A stretch of DNA of 64,000 bases from an uncultured Candidatus Saccharibacteria bacterium (GCA_964479955.1 CAYZNK010000002.1:7489-71488), one strand, 5' to 3'; positions 6,647 through 44,543 are shown, counted from the stretch's first letter. The notes: a model not told the origin generated them from the sequence alone. Translations and numbers: made by a program.

Positions 6647-6707
6647 AGCGGATATCCTTCGTTTTATAAAAACTCAGGATAAATTTATTCGCTTCACTCA
6701 TAAATTT
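6647..6707 (+). promoter_or_regulatory. start-codon-abutting conserved hairpin element, copy a
   Basis: agcggat[ATCCT tcg..ctc AGGAT]aaatttattcgcttcactcataaattt is directly followed by ATG 6708. Confidence 0.45.
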
Positions 6708-7496
6708 ATGTTTGGATTGAACAAAACAACTCCAAGATTCTGCGACCTAAGGGGAAAAGTTGCAATAATAACCGGAGCTAAACAAGGAATGGGCAAGACT
6801 CACGCTTTGCTTTTGGCAAAAGCCGGGGCAAAAGTTGTTGTTTCAGATATTTCAAAAGAAGAATGCCAGCTTGTTGTTGACGAAATTAAAAAACAAAAGG
6901 GAGAAGCAATTGCTGTAAAGTGTGATATAAGCAACAAGGCAGATGTTGACAATATGATTAAGGAAACCCTGGAAAAGTTTAAAAAAATTGATATCTTGGT
7001 AAACAATGCCGGGATTTTTCCGTTCAAGCCGTTTTTAGAACTGTCAGAAAAAGATTTTATGAAAGTGATTGATATTAATTTAAAGGGATATTTTTTGTGC
7101 TCCCAAGCAGCTGCCAAAGAAATGGCAAAACAAAAATCTGGCGCGATTGTGAATATTTCTTCAATCGCAATGGGACAGGTTGGAATGGGGTTTGCCGGAT
7201 TGACTCATTATTGCGCCTCTAAGGGCGGAGTTGTTGGAATGGCAGAGGCTATGGCCCTGGAATTGGCTCCTCTTGGAATAAGGATAAATACAATAGCTCC
7301 AGGAGCTATTGAAACACCGGGAGCTACGGGTGGGGCTGACAAAAAAGGAGATGAATCGATGGTTTCAGTTGTGCCCATGAAACGATGGGGAAAGCCGGAG
7401 GAAATTTCAAATGCAGTTTTGTTTTTGGCTTCCGATGAATCATCTTATATGACAGGCTCTGTAATGGTTGTTGACGGAGGGTGGACAGCAACTTAG
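6708..7496 (+). CDS. short-chain dehydrogenase/reductase (FabG-like)
   Basis: TGAKQGMGK Rossmann motif, NNAG, catalytic YCASKGG. Confidence 0.88.
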   Translation: MFGLNKTTPRFCDLRGKVAIITGAKQGMGKTHALLLAKAGAKVVVSDISKEECQLVVDEIKKQKGEAIAVKCDISNKADVDNMIKETLEKFKKIDILVNNAGIFPFKPFLELSEKDFMKVIDINLKGYFLCSQAAAKEMAKQKSGAIVNISSIAMGQVGMGFAGLTHYCASKGGVVGMAEAMALELAPLGIRINTIAPGAIETPGATGGADKKGDESMVSVVPMKRWGKPEEISNAVLFLASDESSYMTGSVMVVDGGWTAT

Positions 7497-10617: not shown

Positions 10618-11415
10618 ATGAAAATAAAACAGACACAATTAGTTAACAATGAAGTTTATCACATCATCTTAAGGGCAGTTGGCGATAGCTCTGTTTTTAA
10701 CGATCAGAATGACTATTATCGTGGTATTTTTTCCATCTACGAATTCAATAATTCGAAACCAACAGAAATATGGCTGAGGCGAATACAACGTAAAAAAGAG
10801 AAACTCCTTGAAAAACAGGAAGCATTGGGGTGTCCAGCATTGGGGTGTCCGACACCCCAACATTGTGCGACAAAAATAGTCATTGGGGTGTCGGACACCC
10901 CAATGACTAAAGAGGATGATAAGAGAGATAAATTTGTGGAGGTGTTGGCGTTTGCTTTTATGCCAAATCACATTCATTTGTTGCTTAAACAATTAAAAGA
11001 TTGTGGCATAAGTAAATTTATGCAAAAAGTTGGTGGAGGATATGCAAATTATTTTAATAAAAAATATAATCGCAAAGGGCATTTATTTAATAAGTTTAAA
11101 TCAGTTTATATCACTAATGATGACCAACTAAAAACAGTTTTTGCATATATTCACACAAATCCTTTATCTTTTGTGGAACCTAAATGGAAAGAAAATGGGA
11201 TTAAAGATGAAAATAAAGCAGTTAAATTTTTAGAAAAAGAATATAGGTGGTCAAGTCATTTTGATTATCTTGGCAAGAAAAATTTTCCGTCTGTGACCAA
11301 CAGAGATTTCCTTTCAGAAATAATGGGAGGAGAACAAGGATGCAGAGAAGCAATTAGGGATTGGATAAAATATAAAAAAGACATTAATAATTTTGGTGAT
11401 ATTATTTTAGAATAA
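10618..11415 (+). CDS. REP-associated tyrosine transposase (RAYT; IS200/IS605 TnpA-like Y1 HUH enzyme)
   Basis: YHIILRAV, HUH motif MPNHIHLLL and catalytic Tyr context AYIHTNP. REP hairpins flank it on both sides. Confidence 0.85.
   Translation: MKIKQTQLVNNEVYHIILRAVGDSSVFNDQNDYYRGIFSIYEFNNSKPTEIWLRRIQRKKEKLLEKQEALGCPALGCPTPQHCATKIVIGVSDTPMTKEDDKRDKFVEVLAFAFMPNHIHLLLKQLKDCGISKFMQKVGGGYANYFNKKYNRKGHLFNKFKSVYITNDDQLKTVFAYIHTNPLSFVEPKWKENGIKDENKAVKFLEKEYRWSSHFDYLGKKNFPSVTNRDFLSEIMGGEQGCREAIRDWIKYKKDINNFGDIILE
10823..10907. repeat. REPIN (inverted REP pair plus a partial third copy) embedded in-frame in the RAYT ORF
   Basis: cattggggtgtccag + cattggggtgtccgacaccccaa + cattgtgcgacaaaaatagt + cattggggtgtcggacaccccaatgac. 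It translates as ALGCPALGCPTPQHCATKIVIGVSDTPMT. Confidence 0.8.
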
Positions 11416-11422
11416 TTTAGCG

Positions 11423-11479
11423 GTCATTTTGCGGTCTCCGACACCGCAAGAATCTTGCGGTGTCGGAGACCGCAATGAC
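11423..11479. repeat. REPIN (inverted REP pair, GCGG class)
   Basis: ttgcggtctccgacaccgcaa-gaatc-ttgcggtgtcggagaccgcaa, flanked by gtcatt/aatgac. Confidence 0.8.
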
Positions 11480-23638: not shown

Positions 23639-23664
23639 CTTGTGGGGTGTCCGACACCCCAATA
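23639..23664. repeat. REP hairpin
   Basis: cttgtggggtgtccgacaccccaata. Confidence 0.8.
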
Positions 23665-23706: not shown

Positions 23707-23777
23707 TCGGGCTGCTGGGAGTTGCACCCAGGTCTTACGCACCCCATGCGCAAATACTGCTGCTGTACTACAGCCCG
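23707..23777 (-). tRNA. candidate tRNA-Pro (anticodon GGG) with non-canonical D and T loops
   Basis: Hand fold of the minus strand. Acceptor CGGGCTG/CAGCCCG. D stem GTAC/GTAT. Anticodon stem TGCGC/GCGTA with loop AUGGGGU. T stem CTGGG/CCCAG. C1-G72 and A73 fit tRNA-Pro. However the D loop AGCAGCA lacks GG and the T loop is TGCAACT. No encoded CCA. Confidence 0.55.
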
Positions 23778-24789: not shown

Positions 24790-24818
24790 TTGACTCCATC
24801 TTGATTATTTGCTAATAT
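24790..24818 (+). promoter_or_regulatory. candidate str-operon promoter
   Basis: TTGACT, 17-nt spacer, TAATAT, followed by the palindrome aagcgcttaagcgctt. Confidence 0.5.
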
Positions 24819-24880
24819 AATATTTATAAAAAGCGCTTAAGCGCTTGTTTTAAAACAAAAAATTAAAAACAAAAACAAAA

Positions 24881-25291
24881 GTGCCAACAATTCATCAACT
24901 AATCAAAAAAAACAGAAAGAATAAGAAGGGGGTTAAAAAAACCGTTGCTTTGCAGCGCGGTTTTAATGTTTTAAAAAACAGGCCAACACGATATTTTTCT
25001 CCTTTTAAAAGGGGGGTATGCATAAAAGTTTTTACTCAAACTCCAAAAAAACCAAACTCAGCTTTAAGAAAAGTTGCCAGAGTTAAATTGTCAAACGGAA
25101 TGGAAGTTACAGCCTATATTCCAGGAGAGGGGCACAATTTGCAAGAGCACTCGGTTGTGTTAATAAGAGGCGGAAGAGTTAAAGATTTACCAGGAGTAAG
25201 GTATCATGTTGTAAGGGGGGTTTTAGATACGGGCGGAGTTGAAAACAGAAAGCAGGAAAGGTCTAAATATGGAACAAAAAAACCTAAATAG
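24881..25291 (+). CDS. rpsL: 30S ribosomal protein S12
   Basis: GTG start; PTIHQLIKK...[10 protein letters not shown]...[14 protein letters not shown]. Confidence 0.96.
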
Positions 25292-25303
25292 AATTTATTT
25301 TAC

Positions 25304-25768
25304 ATGAGAAGAGCATATAAAAAACACAAAATAGCGCCAGACAGGATTTACAATGACGTATCCATTTCCCAACTTATAAACAAAATAATGGAAGACGGTA
25401 AAAAGGCAACAGCCCAAAAAATTGTTTATGGATCTTTTGATATTATAAAAGAAAAAACAAAAAAAGAGCCGTTTGAAATTTTCAAGCAGGCAATTGAAAA
25501 TGTTTCTCCGCTTTTGGAAGTAAAGCCAAAAAGAATTGGGGGAGCCACTTATCAAGTGCCAATGGAAGTAAGAGGAGAAAGAAAAATAGCGTTGTCTTTT
25601 AAATGGATAATTGATTCAGCCAGGTCAAAAAAAGGAAAATCAATGGCTGAAAAATTAGCTGAAGAGTTAATTTTGGCGTCAAAAAACGAGGGAAACGCAA
25701 TAAAAAAGAAACAGGATACTCACAGAATGGCAGAAGCAAACAAAGCTTTTGCGCACTTTGCCAGATAA
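25304..25768 (+). CDS. rpsG: 30S ribosomal protein S7
   Basis: Canonical S7 sequence ([11 protein letters not shown]...[14 protein letters not shown]). Confidence 0.96.
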
Positions 25769-25812
25769 TTTTTGCTACTAAATTTGCTCAGTAGCAAATT
25801 TAGTAGCAAAAA
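25769..25812. repeat. long perfect hairpin between rpsG and the antisense gene
   Basis: ttgctactaaatttgct-cagt-agcaaatttagtagcaa forms a 17-bp perfect stem, extendable by flanking T/A runs. Confidence 0.7.
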
Positions 25813-25849
25813 ACCCCGCGGATGAACCGAAGGGTATGTTGAGATTTTC

Positions 25850-26098
25850 TTAAACAGGTTCTTCTTTACAGGGAAGTTTTTCAAGTATTTCACGGGTATT
25901 AGGCATCAGTCTTCTGATGTCAAATTCTGTCTCATTTTCTCTTAAAAAATAAAGGATTGTTACCTCAATATTAGCTGAGGCGACCATTAGCGCTAAGCAA
26001 TCTTTAGAAATTCCGGTGAAAGCGTTAATGCTTGCAACATTTTCTGTGATAAGCCGCTGAATTTCACAGAATTTTTGGAAAAGAACAGAAAGTTTCAT
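25850..26098 (-). CDS. hypothetical 82-aa protein antisense to the str operon (cassette D)
   Basis: AAGGA at 26110-26106 lies 7 nt before ATG 26098. Upstream TTGACT..TATAAT-like boxes. The track start 26173 is rejected. Confidence 0.55.
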   Translation of the reverse strand: MKLSVLFQKFCEIQRLITENVASINAFTGISKDCLALMVASANIEVTILYFLRENETEFDIRRLMPNTREILEKLPCKEEPV

Positions 26099-26238
26099 AC
26101 AACGTTCCTTTATAATAGAAGGTTGGTTGTCATCAGAATTGATAATATTATAAAACAAAATAAAAATAGTCAAGTCAATTTAAATATTTAATCATTTTAA
26201 ATTATTTTAAAATTTAACATTAAAAATTAAAAATTAAA

Positions 26239-26294
26239 CAGAGGTAACCCTTCGTTCGACTCGGGGTAAATTTATTCGCCTCGCTCATAAATTT
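26239..26294 (+). promoter_or_regulatory. start-codon-abutting conserved hairpin element, copy b
   Basis: cagaggta[ACCC ttcgttcgactc GGGT]aaatttattcgcctcgctcataaattt is directly followed by ATG 26295. Confidence 0.45.
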
Positions 26295-28370
26295 ATGGCC
26301 AGACAACATCCATTAGATAAATTAAGAAATATTGGAATTATTGCGCACATTGATGCTGGGAAAACAACATTTTCTGAGCGCCTTTTGTTTTATACCGGAG
26401 TTTCCCATAAAATAGGAGAAGTACACGAGGGAGAGGCAGTTATGGATTGGATGGTGCAGGAAAGGGAAAGGGGAATTACAATTACTTCGGCGGCCACAAC
26501 AATGTACTGGAAAGACTACCAGATAAACCTTATTGACACTCCTGGCCACATTGACTTTACAGCAGAAGTGCAGAGGTCTTTGAGGGTTTTGGACGGAGCT
26601 GTTGTTGTGTTTGACGGAGTTGCAGGAGTAGAGTCCCAATCAGAAACAGTGTGGAGGCAGGCAGACAAATACTCTGTGCCAAGAATGTGCTTTATAAATA
26701 AGTTGGACAGAATGGGAGCATCTTTTGAAAAAAGTTTTCAGTCAATATTAAACAAACTTACAACAAACGCAGTTGCAATTTCAATTCCAATGGGGGTTGA
26801 AGAAAAGATGTCAGGCGTTATTGATTTGCTGAAAATGAAGGCATTGTACTTTGAAGGCGAAAAGGGAACTGAAGTTATAGAAAAAGAAATTCCGGAAGAA
26901 TGGAAGGCAGAAGCCGAAGAATGGCACAAAAAAGCCATTGAAAGAATTGCAGGAGAAGATGACGGGCTGACAGAAAAATTTTTGGAAGGAAAAGAAATTT
27001 CTTTGGAAGAATTGAAAAAAGCTTTAAGAAAAGCGGTTTTAGATTACAAGCTGGTGCCTGTTTTATGCGGAACTGCCTTAAAAAACAAGGGAGTTCAGCC
27101 TGTTTTGGATGCAGTTGTTGATTATATGCCCTCTCCTTTAAATCTGCCCCCTGAAAAGGGAACAGACCCAAAAACAGGGGCTGTTATTGAAAGAAAAGCG
27201 GACGACAGTGAGCCGTTTTCGGCTTTGGTTTTCAAAGTTGCCACAGACCCTTTTGTTGGAACTTTGACTTATTTTAGGATTTATTCAGGAAAGCTTGAAA
27301 AAGGCTCTTATGTTTTAAACGCCAACACAGGAGAACAGGAAAGAATTGCCAGAATTTTAAGGATGCATGCTGACGAAAGAAAAGAGCTTGATGTTTTGTA
27401 TGCGGGAGAAATTGGGGCAACGGTTGGATTAAAAGCAACAAGCACGGGGCATACTTTGTGCGCAAAGGAAGCTCCGATTATCTTGGAAAAAATTGTGTTT
27501 CCTGAGCCTGTTATTGGAATCCGTGTTGAGCCAAAGACAAAAGCCGACCAGGAAAAGCTTATTATGTCTATCAGAAAACTTACTGAAGAAGACCCAACGT
27601 TTAGGATTAAAGAGGATTTGGAAACCGGTGAAACAATTATTTCTGGAATGGGAGAATTGCATTTGGATATTATTGCAGACAGATTGAGAAGGGAGTTTCA
27701 CGTTGAAGCCAATTACGGCAAGCCTCAAGTAGCTTATAGAGAGACAATTACCGCAGAGGGGCAGGGCGAAGAAAAATATGTAAGGCAGTCGGGAGGAAAA
27801 GGACAATACGGACATGTGCTGTTAAAAGTTGCTCCAAAAGAAAGGGGAGCAGGATTTGAATTCGTTGACGAAATTAAGGGAGGAGTTATTCCAAAAGAAT
27901 TTATCAAACCCATTGAAAAGGGAGTACAGGAGGCAATGGACAAGGGAATTGTTGCGGGATATCCTATGGTTGATGTTCAGGTCACACTATATGACGGAAG
28001 TTATCACGAAGTTGACTCTTCTGAGTTTGCCTTTAAAATTGCGGGTTCAATGGCATTTCAGCATGCCGCTAGAAATTCAAAGCCGGTTATTTTGGAGCCA
28101 ATTATGAAAGTGGAAATTGTTACCCCTGAAAACTTTTTTGGGCAGGTTATTTCCGATGTTTCTTCAAGAAGAGGAAAAATAGAGGAAACTTCAGAAAGAG
28201 TTGGAATGAAAGTTATTGACGCAATGATTCCTTTGTCAGAAACATTTGGATACGCAACATCTTTAAGGTCTTTGACCGAAGGCAGGGCGTCATTTACAAT
28301 GGAATTTAACAAATATGAGCAGGTTCCAGGAAACGTTGCGCAGGAAATTATTGATGGCAAGAGAAAATAG
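26295..28370 (+). CDS. fusA: translation elongation factor G
   Basis: [27 protein letters not shown]; 691 aa. Confidence 0.97.
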
Positions 28371-28404
28371 AGATATTAGTATTTATAACTCTAAAAATAT
28401 AAAA

Positions 28405-28430
28405 AGTGATAGGACATCCTATCACTTTTT
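28405..28430 (+). terminator. rho-independent terminator after fusA
   Basis: agtgatagg-acat-cctatcact followed by tttt. Confidence 0.65.
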
Positions 28431-28456
28431 AGTTAGCAAGCTCCAACCTTGCAAGA

Positions 28457-28505
28457 ATTGGGGTGTCGGACACCCCAATATTGTGCGACAAAAATAGCCA
28501 TTGTA
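28457..28505. repeat. REP hairpin plus the REPIN linker sequence (half REPIN)
   Basis: aattggggtgtcggacaccccaatattgtgcgacaaaaatagccattg. The linker is the same as in 10861-10885. Confidence 0.8.
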
Positions 28506-28557
28506 ATAAAAAAGCGCCTTGTCCTAACAAAGACTTGGCGCGCCTCGAGTTCGCTAG

Positions 28558-28607
28558 TTTGCGAGGTCGGACCTCGCAAGGTTTTTGCGAGGTCGGACCT
28601 CGCAAAA
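28558..28607. repeat. two direct REP hairpins (GCGAG class)
   Basis: ttgcgaggtcggacctcgcaa occurs twice, separated by ggttt. Confidence 0.8.
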
Positions 28608-28611
28608 CTTT

Positions 28612-29010
28612 TTAGTATTCTGCACAGCTGCCGGAAGATTCTTCAGTGGAAGGATTTTTGACTGCGGGAAATTCGCAGGTATCCTCAATATTGTCTTGTT
28701 TAGGTTCTTTTTCTTGAGGGTCTCCGATACCCGCAAGTTCAAGCCCAAATCTTTTTAAGAATTTCTTGGCTCGTTCCACCGCTGGATCCCAATGGATACG
28801 ATTTGAATGTCCCTTGATTAATCCACGAATAATTCCTGCGAATTCTTCGTGTTTTTCGTTAGCGCGGCGTTTAAAATACGCCCGCCGGGACAAAGGAAGC
28901 GCTACAACACTTGTAAGTTCCCAGCCTTGTTCGGCGAGTTGGCCAATAATGATTTGTTCATCGGATGCGTCTCCGCATAGGTCGTAGACACAAAATTTCC
29001 ACTTTTTCAT
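28612..29010 (-). CDS. hypothetical protein with N-terminal DUF4177-like domain, antisense between fusA and tuf (cassette E)
   Basis: AGGAG at 29021-29017 lies 6 nt before ATG 29010. MKKWKFCVYDL...QLAEQGWELTSVVAL...AYFKR resembles DUF4177. The track start 29196 is rejected. Confidence 0.65.
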   Translation of the reverse strand: MKKWKFCVYDLCGDASDEQIIIGQLAEQGWELTSVVALPLSRRAYFKRRANEKHEEFAGIIRGLIKGHSNRIHWDPAVERAKKFLKRFGLELAGIGDPQEKEPKQDNIEDTCEFPAVKNPSTEESSGSCAEY

Positions 29011-29119
29011 CACATTCTCCTTTGCGTAAGCGAATATGGAAAGAACTAATAAAATAATATCAAAAATAAGAAATTTGTCAAAGATTTTGGATTGTTTTTT
29101 GAAAATATAAAACACCCTC

Positions 29120-29148
29120 TTGACTATTAAAAAAAAATAGAATAATAT
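29120..29148 (+). promoter_or_regulatory. candidate dedicated tuf promoter
   Basis: TTGACT, 17-nt spacer, TAATAT. The leader contains gtacaaat...atttgtac and gcgcc...ggcgc hairpins. Confidence 0.5.
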
Positions 29149-29257
29149 AAAATTATTAAAAGGCAGTACAAATGCCAAGAGGTTATTTGTACACAAATAA
29201 AATAAAAAAGTAATTAAATTTTTGCGCCTGGCAAATGGCGCGAGAAAAAAATAATCA

Positions 29258-30454
29258 ATGGCAACAGAAAAATTTGAGAGGTCAAAACCTCACGTAAATA
29301 TTGGTACTATTGGTCACGTTGACCATGGAAAAACCACATTGTCAGCTGCAATTATGAAAGCTTCAAAATTGCGCGGATTTAAAGCATCTGAAAAAGATGT
29401 TGACCAGATTGACGCATCTCCGGAAGAAAAAGCAAGAGGAGTGACAATTTCCATTACTCACTTGGAATGCGAAACTCCAAAAAGGCACTATGCAGTTATT
29501 GACTGCCCAGGACACGCTGACTATATTAAAAACATGATTACGGGAGCCGCTCAAATGGACGGAGGAATTTTGCTTGTATCAGCTCCAGACGGTCCTATGC
29601 CTCAGACAAGAGAGCATATTTTGCTTGCCCACCAGGTTGGATTGCCGTCATTGGTTGTGTTTATGAACAAGTGCGATATGGTTGATGACCCTGAAATTTT
29701 GGATTTGGTTGAATCAGAAATTAGGGAATTATTGAAAAAGAACAAATATCCTGGAGATGAAATACCTATTATAAGGGGTTCAGCCACAAAAGCATTGGCC
29801 GCAACATCTGTTGATGATGCCGCTATAAAGCCAATTATTGAATTATTGGATGCCTGCGATAATTATATTCCAGAACCAAAAAGAGAATTAGACAAGCCTT
29901 TTGCAATGGCAGTAGAAGATGTATTCTCAATTGAAGGAAGGGGAACAGTTGCAACAGGAAGAATTGAAAGGGGAATTATTAAGCCAAATGATGAAATTGA
30001 AATAATTGGTATTAGGCCAACACAAAAAACAGTAGTTGTTTCAGTGGAAATGTTCCAAAAATCTTTAGACGAAGGAAGAGCCGGAGATAATGTTGGGCTT
30101 TTGTTGAGAGGATTAAAGAAAGAAGATATTGAGAGAGGACAAGTTTTATGCAAACCAGGCTCAATTACCCCTCACACAGAGTTTGAATGCGAAGTGTATG
30201 TATTGTCAAAAGACGAAGGAGGAAGGCACACTCCGTTTTTCTCGGGATACAAGCCTCAGCTTTATATCAGAACATCCGATATTACAGGCGACGTAACACT
30301 ACCTCAGGGAACTGAAATGGTTATGCCTGGAGACACTGCAAATTTAACTGTTAAATTGATAGCACCTGTTGCATTAGAAGAAAAACAAGGCTTTGCTATA
30401 AGAGAAGGAGGAAAAACTGTTGGCGCCGGAATTGTAACAAAGATAATAAAATAA
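29258..30454 (+). CDS. tuf: translation elongation factor Tu
   Basis: [21 protein letters not shown]; 398 aa. Confidence 0.98.
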
Positions 30455-30457
30455 GAC

Positions 30458-30847
30458 ATGCCAGCAAAGAAATCAACAACTCCAAAAGCAAAATCCTCAA
30501 CAGCCGTTAAGGCGGTAAAACAGGAAAAGCAAATCAAGGAAGGCTTGGCAAAGCTCCGCATAAAATTGCGGGCTTACGACCATAAAATAATTGATAATTC
30601 CTGCCGCCAAATTGTTGATATTGCAAACAGGTACGGAGCTGAAATAATAGGCCCGGTTCCTTTGCCAACAGAGATTCTGAAATACACCGTAAACAGGTCT
30701 TCTTTTGTCCATAAAAATGCAAGGGAGCAGTTTGAGATGAGAGTGCACAAAAGGGTTATTGATATCTTAAATCCTGACCAGGAAATCATAGAAGCATTAA
30801 GAGAGATGAATTTGCCTTCAGGTGTGGATATAACAGTAAAGATTTAA
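30458..30847 (+). CDS. rpsJ: 30S ribosomal protein S10 with ~27-aa Lys/Ala-rich N-terminal extension
   Basis: LRIKLRAYDHKIID...SSFVHKNAREQFEMRVHKRVIDI. Confidence 0.95.
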   Translation: MPAKKSTTPKAKSSTAVKAVKQEKQIKEGLAKLRIKLRAYDHKIIDNSCRQIVDIANRYGAEIIGPVPLPTEILKYTVNRSSFVHKNAREQFEMRVHKRVIDILNPDQEIIEALREMNLPSGVDITVKI

Positions 30848-30850
30848 AAC

Positions 30851-31111
30851 ATGTTCTATGTCTATGTTTTGAAAAGTCGAAAAGACGGCAAACATTACAT
30901 AGGATTTAGTACAGACTTAAAGAATAGATTTAAAGACCACTGTGAGGGTAAGGTCAGAGCTACATCGTATAGAAGACCATTAGAACTTATTTATTACGAA
31001 GCCTATAAAGAGAGAAACATAGCCCAGAAAAGAGAGAGGCAATTAAAAGGTGGAAAAGCACACATTATACTTATAAAAAGATTAAAGGAAGGAGTTGAGT
31101 CTTCACCTTAA
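30851..31111 (+). CDS. stand-alone GIY-YIG nuclease-domain protein
   Basis: FYVYVLKSRKDGKHYIGFSTDLKNRFKDH...RERQLKG. It starts 3 nt after the rpsJ stop. Confidence 0.85.
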   Translation: MFYVYVLKSRKDGKHYIGFSTDLKNRFKDHCEGKVRATSYRRPLELIYYEAYKERNIAQKRERQLKGGKAHIILIKRLKEGVESSP

Positions 31112-40422: not shown

Positions 40423-40505
40423 GCGAGACGTCCTTCGCTTTATATAATGAATTATTATATATCAATATAAAGCTCAGGATGATTTATTCGCTAAGCTCAT
40501 AAATC
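40422..40505 (+). promoter_or_regulatory. start-codon-abutting conserved hairpin element, copy c (expanded loop)
   Basis: agcgagacg[TCCT tcgctttatata...tatataaagctc AGGA]tgatttattcgctaagctcataaatc is directly followed by ATG 40506. Confidence 0.45.
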
Positions 40506-44156: not shown

Positions 44157-44543
44157 ATGAACCGTCAAAGCAGGGGTTTGTTGGATTTGGTGGATGTCCT
44201 TGTTACAAGACGAGCCGGTCTTCAGCAATCGCTGGCAGGAGAGTTGCGTTTTCTTAGGTCGGTTCCTCAAGAAAACATCCTTAACCTTCCGGACTCTGCA
44301 TTGAGTTCGGAAGGTTTGGAGGTTGCTTCCCGCCTTGCCGAAGAGAAGAGCAACGAGCTTCTCCTTATTGAGGAAGCCTTAGGGCGGGTTGAAAACGGTC
44401 TTCACGGTGTTTGTGAAAGATGTGGAAAGAGAATCCCGCAGGCTCGAATGGAAGCTGTACCCCACGCAACCCGTTGCGTAAAATGCCAGCGGGTTTACGA
44501 AATTGAGTGCGCTGTTGATGAAAAGGACTTAGTTGAAGCCTGA
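44157..44543 (+). CDS. DksA/TraR-family C4 zinc-finger protein (cassette F)
   Basis: AGGAGG at 44144-44149 lies 7 nt before the ATG. C-terminal CERCGKRIPQARMEAVPHATRCVKCQ preceded by a coiled-coil region. Confidence 0.82.
   Translation: MNRQSRGLLDLVDVLVTRRAGLQQSLAGELRFLRSVPQENILNLPDSALSSEGLEVASRLAEEKSNELLLIEEALGRVENGLHGVCERCGKRIPQARMEAVPHATRCVKCQRVYEIECAVDEKDLVEA

Follow-up and report, generated by a model that had tools for sequence, protein, structure and literature searches.

Opposite-strand small genes in the two spacers flanking fusA within the str cluster of a Candidatus Saccharibacteria record

In most bacteria the genes rpsL, rpsG, fusA and tuf are adjacent and co-transcribed. Here we describe these genes in a stretch of 64,000 nucleotides, called the window below and numbered from its first nucleotide, which comes from a record assigned to Candidatus Saccharibacteria (GCA_964479955.1 CAYZNK010000002.1:7489-71488). 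The two spacers that flank fusA are long in the window, 526 bp between rpsG and fusA and 887 bp between fusA and tuf, and each contains one open reading frame (ORF) on the opposite strand, named orfA and orfB, respectively. These gene calls and gap sizes, first put forward in an earlier note on the same DNA, were correct when compared with an ORF map and with the raw sequence. The arrangement is not that of a classical str operon, in which the four genes are adjacent on one strand and separated by short spacers. We hold with moderate confidence that it reflects the capture of accessory genes at permissive spacers of an essential cluster; both small genes look like tolerated cargo and not like a proven new regulator.

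For wider context we employed 80 genome loci retrieved with elongation factor G (EF-G, the product of fusA), some of which come from records with doubtful organism labels. Loci are designated by L numbers and proteins by P numbers. Across these loci the fusA-tuf spacer of non-Patescibacteria spans 25-283 bp. Among the loci nearest to the window, the same spacer measures at most 200 bp in five, 0.3-0.6 kb in four and 1.1-3 kb in six, and three lack tuf within 6 kb of fusA. The earlier note had called the str gene order universally conserved, which is too strong for this group. Comparison of synteny with relatives revealed that both window spacers are longer than their counterparts, which are 3 bp (rpsG-fusA) and 97 bp (fusA-tuf) in L001 and 20 bp (rpsG-fusA) in L107.

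Antisense gene orfB and the fusA-tuf boundary

Within the fusA-tuf spacer lies orfB, an antisense gene that resembles DUF4177 (DUF, domain of unknown function) and is preceded by its own promoter and Shine-Dalgarno (SD) box, all of which the earlier note had recognized (Table 1). Homology searches revealed a real gene that is conserved in sequence and position. Against the Pfam DUF4177 model (PF13783) the protein scored 17 bits (E = 0.0069, residues 16-48), below the gathering score of 25 bits. A word-indexed protein search returned the query alone, and no match was found in NCBIfam, PHROGs or PADLOC. An exhaustive HMMER scan of 1.84 billion representative proteins yielded 25 matches, about 20 of which are small proteins (56-128 aa) aligned to residues 1-57; apart from the loci described below, the family is nearly absent from this collection. 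Its signature is MKKWxxxVxDLxGDxxxE...GWELVSVVxLPLCRRAYFKR. The family profile reaches proteins annotated with PF13783 (P0030, P0031 and P0034-P0036, E values from 6e-7 to 6e-4), which makes the two families homologous at the profile level, and P0003 shows a faint match to PF13783. Only one profile match bears an organism name, a hypothetical protein from Candidatus Staskawiczbacteria, and a search of viral contigs with the profile gave three matches (L110-L112) of 33-45% identity.

Modeling of orfB by AlphaFold2 with the family alignment placed residues 1-50 at a predicted local distance difference test score (pLDDT) of 93-97, with strands at residues 4-11, 31-37 and 42-49 and a helix at 15-27. 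This strand-helix-strand-strand order is the topology of the published model of the DUF4177 protein PEG 446 (PMC11322243), a comparison between two models. Foldseek found nothing significant for the orfB model in the PDB (best E = 0.067), and a sequence profile search of the PDB gave no match. Over the first 48 codons the ratio of nonsynonymous to synonymous substitution rates (dN/dS) was 0.12-0.32 in nine of ten unsaturated pairs, so the frame is under purifying selection. Genomic context was read from contig look-ups and a metagenome scan and checked by tblastn. All homologues with readable context lie antisense between fusA and tuf, in ten lineages including the window, with EF-G proteins 80-98% identical to that of the window. 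The clade that carries orfB is related to Candidatus Staskawiczbacteria (Paceibacteria). Against this EF-G identity, the N-domain of orfB is only 38-62% identical and the tails are highly variable; the gene thus evolves far faster than its neighbours.

The spacer also carries the signals expected of a transcriptional boundary. The terminator that the earlier note had placed after fusA (28405-28430) is present, with arms that span 28400-28431, and by sequence it would work in both directions, since on each strand a stable stem-loop is followed by a U-run. It folds with -17.7 kcal/mol on both strands, with only four G-C pairs in the stem, and is almost unchanged in sequence among the window, L081 and L103. 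Because the terminator is bidirectional, the convergent transcripts of fusA and orfB should overlap only within the hairpin, which argues against strong convergent-transcription interference at this junction, an effect the earlier note had suspected. The proposed tuf promoter is likewise present, back to back with that of orfB, their -35 boxes about 40 bp apart. In an alignment of 11 loci over the 170 nt that precede tuf, all have the same -35 box, TTGACT, and a -10 box TAnnAT exactly 17 nt from it, including two loci that lack orfB: L001, a Staskawiczbacteria genome whose EF-G is 86% identical and whose fusA-tuf spacer is the short one given above, and L002, whose spacer holds other genes. 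Since it is conserved in loci without orfB, the promoter is ancestral and not new, as had been thought, and the boundary predates the insertion. Given a terminator and a conserved tuf promoter between the two genes, loss of fusA-tuf co-transcription, already suspected before, is likely, and the genes likely form separate transcription units.

Comparison of relatives revealed that the cassette around orfB varies widely. In L081 and L103, whose EF-G proteins are 95-96% identical to that of the window, the orfB orthologues are shorter (92 and 93 aa, respectively). The middle module of the window protein (residues 54-93) is a separate 67-aa gene in the fusA-tuf spacer of L086, and the C-terminal motif IEDTCEFPAVK is common to the window, L081, L103 and L084. 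Four loci (L088, L091, L093 and L096) encode two conserved single-pass membrane peptides ahead of the DUF4177-like gene, also antisense. One has 34 aa and a MSFDVIFVLFVGAIAIFLFFQGQIPKKKDKENRL-like sequence; the other has 36 aa and the sequence MKSxVKVIxNIAIILFLIAFLFLLLCLQPVTKEKKS, and its stop codon overlaps the start of the DUF4177-like gene. All these ORFs have SD boxes. Both membrane peptides have been lost in the window, L081 and L103. Three other loci (L092, L097 and L098) carry two or three tandem DUF4177-like paralogues, in which the N-domain and a KREIPE(P)P linker are common to all but the C-terminal extensions, of up to 366 aa and with Cys/His-rich stretches, differ strongly, an organization that suggests a polymorphic small-protein family. 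As the cassette differs in this way among loci, the fusA-tuf spacer is best described as a small variable islet around one conserved domain.

More distant relatives carry other fusA-tuf cargo, including inserts of 1-3 kb. In the distant Paceibacteria L006, L010, L015, L017, L022 and L058 a solo PhdYefM-like ORF recurs on the sense strand between fusA and tuf; it reaches the Pfam threshold for PhdYefM in L006 and stays below it in L017 and L022. The spacer of L011 holds a gene pair that, judged by eye, resembles Phd and a RelE-like partner.

The 3' region of orfB is occupied by three palindromes of the repetitive extragenic palindromic (REP) type. Copies of this family (consensus TTG[CG]GGnGTC[CG]GACnCC[CG]CAA), of the form GGGGTGTCGGACACCCC and its variants, number about 12 in the 64-kb window as against 0.01 expected. 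They are short imperfect palindromes that lie mostly between ORFs, with two or three inside long mechanical ORFs, and related copies occur in the fusA-tuf spacers of L081 and L103. The earlier note had described three REP hairpins plus a REPIN linker at 28457-28607. The three palindromes stand; the REPIN, an inverted REP pair that forms one long hairpin, does not, for the doublet at 28558-28606 carries GTCGGAC on the plus strand in both copies (28561 and 28587) and is therefore tandem. It folds into a hairpin of -40 kcal/mol because each unit is itself palindromic. True inverted pairs, REPIN-like, are found elsewhere in the window, at 11429-11475 and 10840-10901, where they adjoin the start of a 1900-aa ORF; one of them has a 23-bp stem.

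The rpsG-fusA spacer and the expression signals of both inserts

The second spacer begins with an AT-rich hairpin that the earlier note had described as perfect at 25772-25809; its stem in fact reaches 20 bp (Table 1). The hairpin folds with -25.1 and -25.6 kcal/mol (z = -10 and -8). Its T5 and A5 runs sit within the stem, which is followed by ACCCCGCGG on the plus strand and by TTATCTGG on the minus strand. With no U-run after the stem on either strand, the hairpin does not qualify as a canonical intrinsic terminator. L103 carries a decayed copy of it, and at this place in L081 there is a different hairpin. Folding of the spacer revealed no canonical terminator between rpsG and fusA, and a relaxed scan for a fusA promoter gave only weak, non-conserved candidates. 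Read-through from rpsG to fusA, against the orfA promoter, is plausible from these signals.

The 82-aa antisense ORF claimed for this gap is present, and it is probably expressed as a protein. Only 0.2% of dinucleotide shuffles of the gap gave an open frame longer than its 107 codons (P=0.002), and the frame is the best of the six by codon usage, with a score equal to that of the validated orfB. The ORF follows a correctly spaced SD box in a genome where SD motifs are rare, and the hexamers of its promoter recur unchanged in the rpsL and tuf promoters. Conservation was not borne out even at 95-96% EF-G identity, since L081 and L103 lack orfA. No homologue was found in 5.8 billion proteins, among which a word-indexed search returned the query alone; Pfam, NCBIfam, PHROGs and PADLOC gave no match, and tblastn gave no phage or plasmid match. 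A viral-contig match (L109) was rejected as chance because it falls antisense to a real 98-aa gene. The AlphaFold2 model is helical and of low confidence (pLDDT 56). The codon-usage score of orfA is reached by 42% of known spurious ORFs, and in absolute value the score fails to separate either orfA or orfB from spurious ORFs. Hence an alternative has to be weighed in which orfA is non-functional and the spacer holds a decaying insert or a non-coding antisense transcript, the 82/107-codon frame being a remnant or a very young ORF. The missing homologues, the poor structural model and the spurious ORFs of equal score all fit this alternative, as do L081 and L103, in which an antisense promoter stands at the orfA site with no conserved ORF behind it. 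Against the length of the frame, its rank among the six, its SD box and its promoter, we consider the alternative rather doubtful, but of appreciable weight.

Cargo at this position changes from one relative to the next. The spacer is 302 bp in L081 and 380 bp in L103. As a side observation, these two loci have in common an element of some 190 nt that bears a near-consensus antisense promoter (TTGACA-16-TATAAT) and no conserved ORF; it may be a small antisense RNA, and in the window its place is taken by orfA. L088 carries a HicB-like gene and HicA on the sense strand (HicA Pfam E = 3.4e-13). L093/L094 and L096 carry homologous antisense ORFs of 86 and 94 aa, which are unrelated to orfA and match no family. 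The region was also aligned and the antisense promoters identified by eye, not by a promoter scan. Those of the window, L093 and L096 (TTGAC[TA]-17-TAATAT with a TTTTATTTTG spacer) are homologous, and L081 and L103 have TTGACA/TTAACA-16-TATAAT. Homology across these loci covers the promoter but stops short of the coding sequence that follows it, which makes the promoter older than orfA and implies an exchange of cargo.

Both inserts differ from the core genes in their translation signals. Among the window ORFs of at least 120 aa, only 4 of 69 have GGAG, GAGG or AGGA upstream, whereas 16% of random 17-mers contain such a motif; the leaders of core genes are A/T-rich and lack SD boxes (for example 24851-24880, 25274-25303, 26265-26294 and 29228-29257). 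SD boxes are found on orfA, on orfB and on every cassette ORF in relatives. Loss of the anti-SD motif has been reported in part of the Parcubacteria (PMC9297842). The codon-usage score is 0.09 bits per codon for orfA and orfB versus 0.23-0.46 for core genes. Taken together, the SD boxes and the low scores fit an accessory or foreign origin of the two genes. Two further genes of the window are also SD-led, one at 1536-2177 without a Pfam family and, at 44157-44543, a gene of the DksA/TraR zinc-finger type.

Leader elements and other features of the cluster

Coordinates of the features are collected in Table 1.

Table 1. Features of the str cluster in the window, in order of position.
Feature	Position	Strand	Remarks
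rpsL-rpsG promoter-like site	24790..24818	+	TTGACT-17-TAATAT, TG before -10; hexamers identical to tuf and orfA sites
rpsL	24881-25291	+	ORF map; proteins of rpsL and rpsG 96-97% identical to L081
rpsG	25304-25768	+	ORF map
Perfect 20-bp AT-rich hairpin	25769..25812		Directly 3' of rpsG stop codon; 17 bp plus T/A extension
orfA	25850..26098	-	82 aa, antisense, predicted helical; ORF map
SD-like motif of orfA	26105..26110	-	AAGGAA, 7 nt before ATG
orfA promoter-like site	26145..26173	-	Antisense; TTGACT-17-TAATAT; hexamers identical to rpsL and tuf promoters
Two-hairpin leader element	26239..26294	+	Abuts fusA start codon; no SD box
fusA	26295-28370	+	EF-G, 691 aa
Putative bidirectional intrinsic terminator	28400..28431		Convergent fusA/orfB; A5, 14-15 bp stem, T5; arms 28400-28414, 28417-28431
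Three REP-like palindromes	28457-28479, 28558-28580, 28584-28606		3' region of orfB
orfB	28612..29010	-	132 aa; DUF4177-like N-domain (1-50), middle module (54-93), C-terminal motif IEDTCEFPAVK
SD box of orfB	29017..29022	-	AAGGAG, 7 nt before ATG; same motif before homologues
orfB promoter	29054..29081	-	TTGACA-16-TATTAT, TG extension, 11/12 matches; conserved in L081, L103
tuf promoter	29120..29148	+	TTGACT-17-TAATAT; consensus match
tuf leader hairpin	29219..29246	+	GCGCC-UGGCAAAU-GGCGC, 12-15 nt before ATG
tuf	29258-30454	+	ORF map
rpsJ	30458-30847	+	ORF map

The hairpin in the tuf leader is kept in L081, L103, L088, L091, L086 and L001, and three of its six pairs show compensatory changes over the seven loci. 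A second hairpin of the same leader, GTACAAAT...ATTTGTAC at about 29165-29195, is common to the window, L081 and L103. No known RNA family was detected in either spacer with Rfam, which returned spurious hairpin matches only.

The element that abuts the fusA start codon had been described as conserved, and copies were indeed found before the window genes at 6708 and 40506 and in related loci. It is a two-hairpin element of about 55 nt that runs right up to the start codons of unrelated genes, namely fusA, an SDR gene, secY and the tuf gene of a relative (window copies at 26239-26294, 6650-6707 and about 40470-40505; further copies in the L081 fusA leader and the L096 tuf leader). Its consensus is ..CCTTCG..CTCAGGrTAAATTTATTCGCyTCrCTCATAAATTT-ATG, and by eye, uncounted, the stems seem to covary between copies. 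The fusA copy alone folds no better than shuffles (z = -0.6). The element could be a mobile leader or a translation-initiation element in an SD-less genome.

A third interruption of the cluster lies between rpsJ and rplC, where an 86-aa ORF with a GIY-YIG nuclease domain (Pfam E = 9.6e-15) occupies 30851-31111 on the sense strand. Only a truncated remnant of it (residues 46-86, 90% identical) is left in L103 and L104, and the corresponding junction of L107 contains a 233-aa ORF. A gene of this kind at the rpsJ-rplC junction, truncated in L103, is more evidence of mobile cargo in the cluster. Upstream of the cluster, ARAGORN placed a tRNA-Pro(GGG) at 23707-23777, which scored 47.5 bits against the Rfam tRNA model in a permissive run and is not among the matches of the whole-window Rfam run at the gathering threshold; a REP copy at 23643-23661 adjoins it.

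Proposed capture of accessory genes, rival explanations and known systems

We propose that the two spacers flanking fusA are insertion-tolerant slots in which small accessory genes may have been captured. Before the insertion, the fusA-tuf spacer would already have served as an operon boundary, where tuf-rpsJ had a promoter of its own and fusA a terminator. An ancestor of the clade would then have gained an opposite-strand cassette of small SD-led genes around the DUF4177-like protein, which was presumably inherited vertically while it diverged fast and was remodelled, with extra membrane peptides or paralogues in some relatives. The window and its closest relatives would have kept a single cassette gene, the middle module having become fused into the orfB of the window. 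Transcription of orfB would start at a strong promoter divergent from that of tuf and end, past the REP-filled 3' region, at the terminator shared with fusA. The rpsG-fusA spacer would be a younger slot with faster turnover, in which an antisense promoter drives lineage-specific cargo, orfA in the case of the window. The layout, the conservation and the selection on orfB are established by the comparisons above; we infer the transcript boundaries from the sequence signals, and the function of the cargo would be unrelated to EF-G or EF-Tu.

Several observations weigh against this proposal. The cassette is absent from L001, whose fusA is 86% identical, and present in L107, at 80%; therefore a loss or a second gain is needed. 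A repeat scan of the window revealed no direct repeats or target-site duplications flanking either insert, and no signature of mobility (target duplication, integrase) was found for either. The strict clade-wide position of orfB is also what a function linked to fusA or tuf would predict, although vertical inheritance alone explains it, and the back-to-back promoters of orfB and tuf could be coupled. Moreover, promoters and terminators were identified as consensus matches, with sigma-70-type rules assumed for this phylum.

The most serious rival for the cassette as a whole is that the antisense units regulate the expression or function of translation factors, a role the earlier note had suggested in proposing that the inserted genes exploit or modulate such expression. 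They might do so through convergent or antisense transcription from the orfA and orfB promoters that cuts read-through into fusA and tuf, through co-control of the divergent orfB and tuf promoters, or through binding of the DUF4177-like protein to fusA or tuf mRNA, EF-G, EF-Tu or the ribosome. The strict position of orfB and the promoter pair fit such a role, and so does the antisense promoter at the fusA-proximal end of the rpsG-fusA spacer, which is kept in five lineages despite differing cargo. The post-rpsG hairpin lacks a U-run, so the orfA transcript could extend antisense into rpsG. In Bacillus subtilis the DUF4177 protein YjzH is among candidate RNA-binding proteins (bioRxiv 10.1101/2025.03.21.644579). 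However, the bidirectional terminator leaves the fusA and orfB transcripts an overlap no longer than the hairpin, the tuf promoter is older than the insert, the rpsG-fusA cargo is not conserved and includes sense-strand toxin-antitoxin genes, orfB evolves far faster than its neighbours, and L001 manages without orfB. Comparisons of sequence, family and context gave no evidence that ties either protein to translation-factor control, and we regard regulation as unlikely. Somewhat less likely still is the narrower version in which the orfB family is a lineage-specific partner of fusA and tuf that acts on the expression or function of EF-Tu or EF-G, for example by binding the structured tuf leader or the factors themselves, with the conserved antisense promoter upstream of fusA as a second arm; if true, it would represent a previously unknown clade-specific regulatory layer in the str cluster of the Candidate Phyla Radiation (CPR).

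Least probable of all is a reading of the fusA-tuf cassette as a small, polymorphic toxin-immunity or bacteriocin-like module that resides at the str cluster only for the stability of the site, with the DUF4177-like protein and its variable tails as effector and the membrane peptides as immunity or export functions: the overlapping 36-aa and DUF4177-like genes, the tandem paralogues with their conserved N-domain, KREIPE linker and divergent extensions, and the antibacterial activity reported for PEG 446, a 66-aa DUF4177 protein of Clostridium tyrobutyricum (PMC11322243), are in keeping with it, but orfB lacks a signal or leader peptide, its neighbourhood contains no transporter, the membrane peptides have been lost from the window and its closest relatives although orfB is kept, no match to PADLOC or to a toxin family was obtained, and the PEG 446 report is a single study of an incompletely purified protein.

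Capture of accessory genes can also be set against systems already described. Independent tuf promoters exist elsewhere: tufA promoters lie inside fusA in E. coli, a tuf promoter lies in the fus-tuf spacer of Bacillus, and fus and tuf are separated in Rickettsia. The present case resembles these in that tuf has its own sigma-70-type promoter just 3' of fusA, so that co-transcription is not obligatory; it differs in the conserved terminator and opposite-strand cassette alongside. The family resembles DUF4177 small proteins such as PEG 446 and YjzH in its length of about 50-60 residues, its W-E-Y...GWELV...FKR pattern and its predicted fold, and it differs in its own signature (MKKW..V.DL.GD...E and LPLCRRAYFKR), its extra C-terminal modules and its fixed genomic address. 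To our knowledge, DUF4177 has no established function. Like the REPs and REPINs of Proteobacteria, the palindromes are short, GC-rich and imperfect, occur in many copies that are mostly intergenic and often paired, and often lie past convergent genes, whereas the pair in the spacer is tandem and the sequence family is lineage-specific; no RAYT-type (IS200/IS605-like Y1) transposase was seen in the 64 kb, though no search aimed at one was made. With type II toxin-antitoxin systems (HicAB, Phd/YefM-RelE) the likeness is that relatives carry such cargo in both spacers flanking fusA; the HicAB and Phd-like ORFs found there indicate that the slots accept toxin-antitoxin cargo. By contrast, neither orfA nor orfB could be assigned to a toxin or antitoxin family, and each window spacer contains one ORF and no pair. 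Small multigene insertions such as tusDCB and bfd-bfr have been described between the operons of the conserved operon supercluster (PMC6735719, PMC8046335). The window shares with that supercluster the same four genes in the same order and the S10 operon after them. Unlike the published insertions, which lie between operons and are read as sense-strand, those of the window are inside the classical str unit and antisense, have their own promoters and a bidirectional terminator, and in one case are fixed across a clade. Our literature searches turned up no account of an antisense cassette that spans a clade and lies within the str unit.

Few gene arrangements in bacteria are as stable as the str-S10 cluster, which serves as an anchor for synteny and phylogeny. 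In one reduced-genome CPR lineage, the spacers that flank fusA within it appear to have turned into small variable islets, one of which contains a clade-wide, fast-evolving antisense cassette of small proteins. This gives a DUF4177-like subfamily a defined and conserved address, offers a natural case of a putative bidirectional terminator and back-to-back promoters within an essential cluster, and sets SD-led accessory genes in contrast to SD-less core genes. If the cassette acted on the expression of EF-Tu or EF-G, it would constitute a new regulatory layer; if it is not regulatory, it would be a clean case of accessory genes settled where deletion is unlikely.

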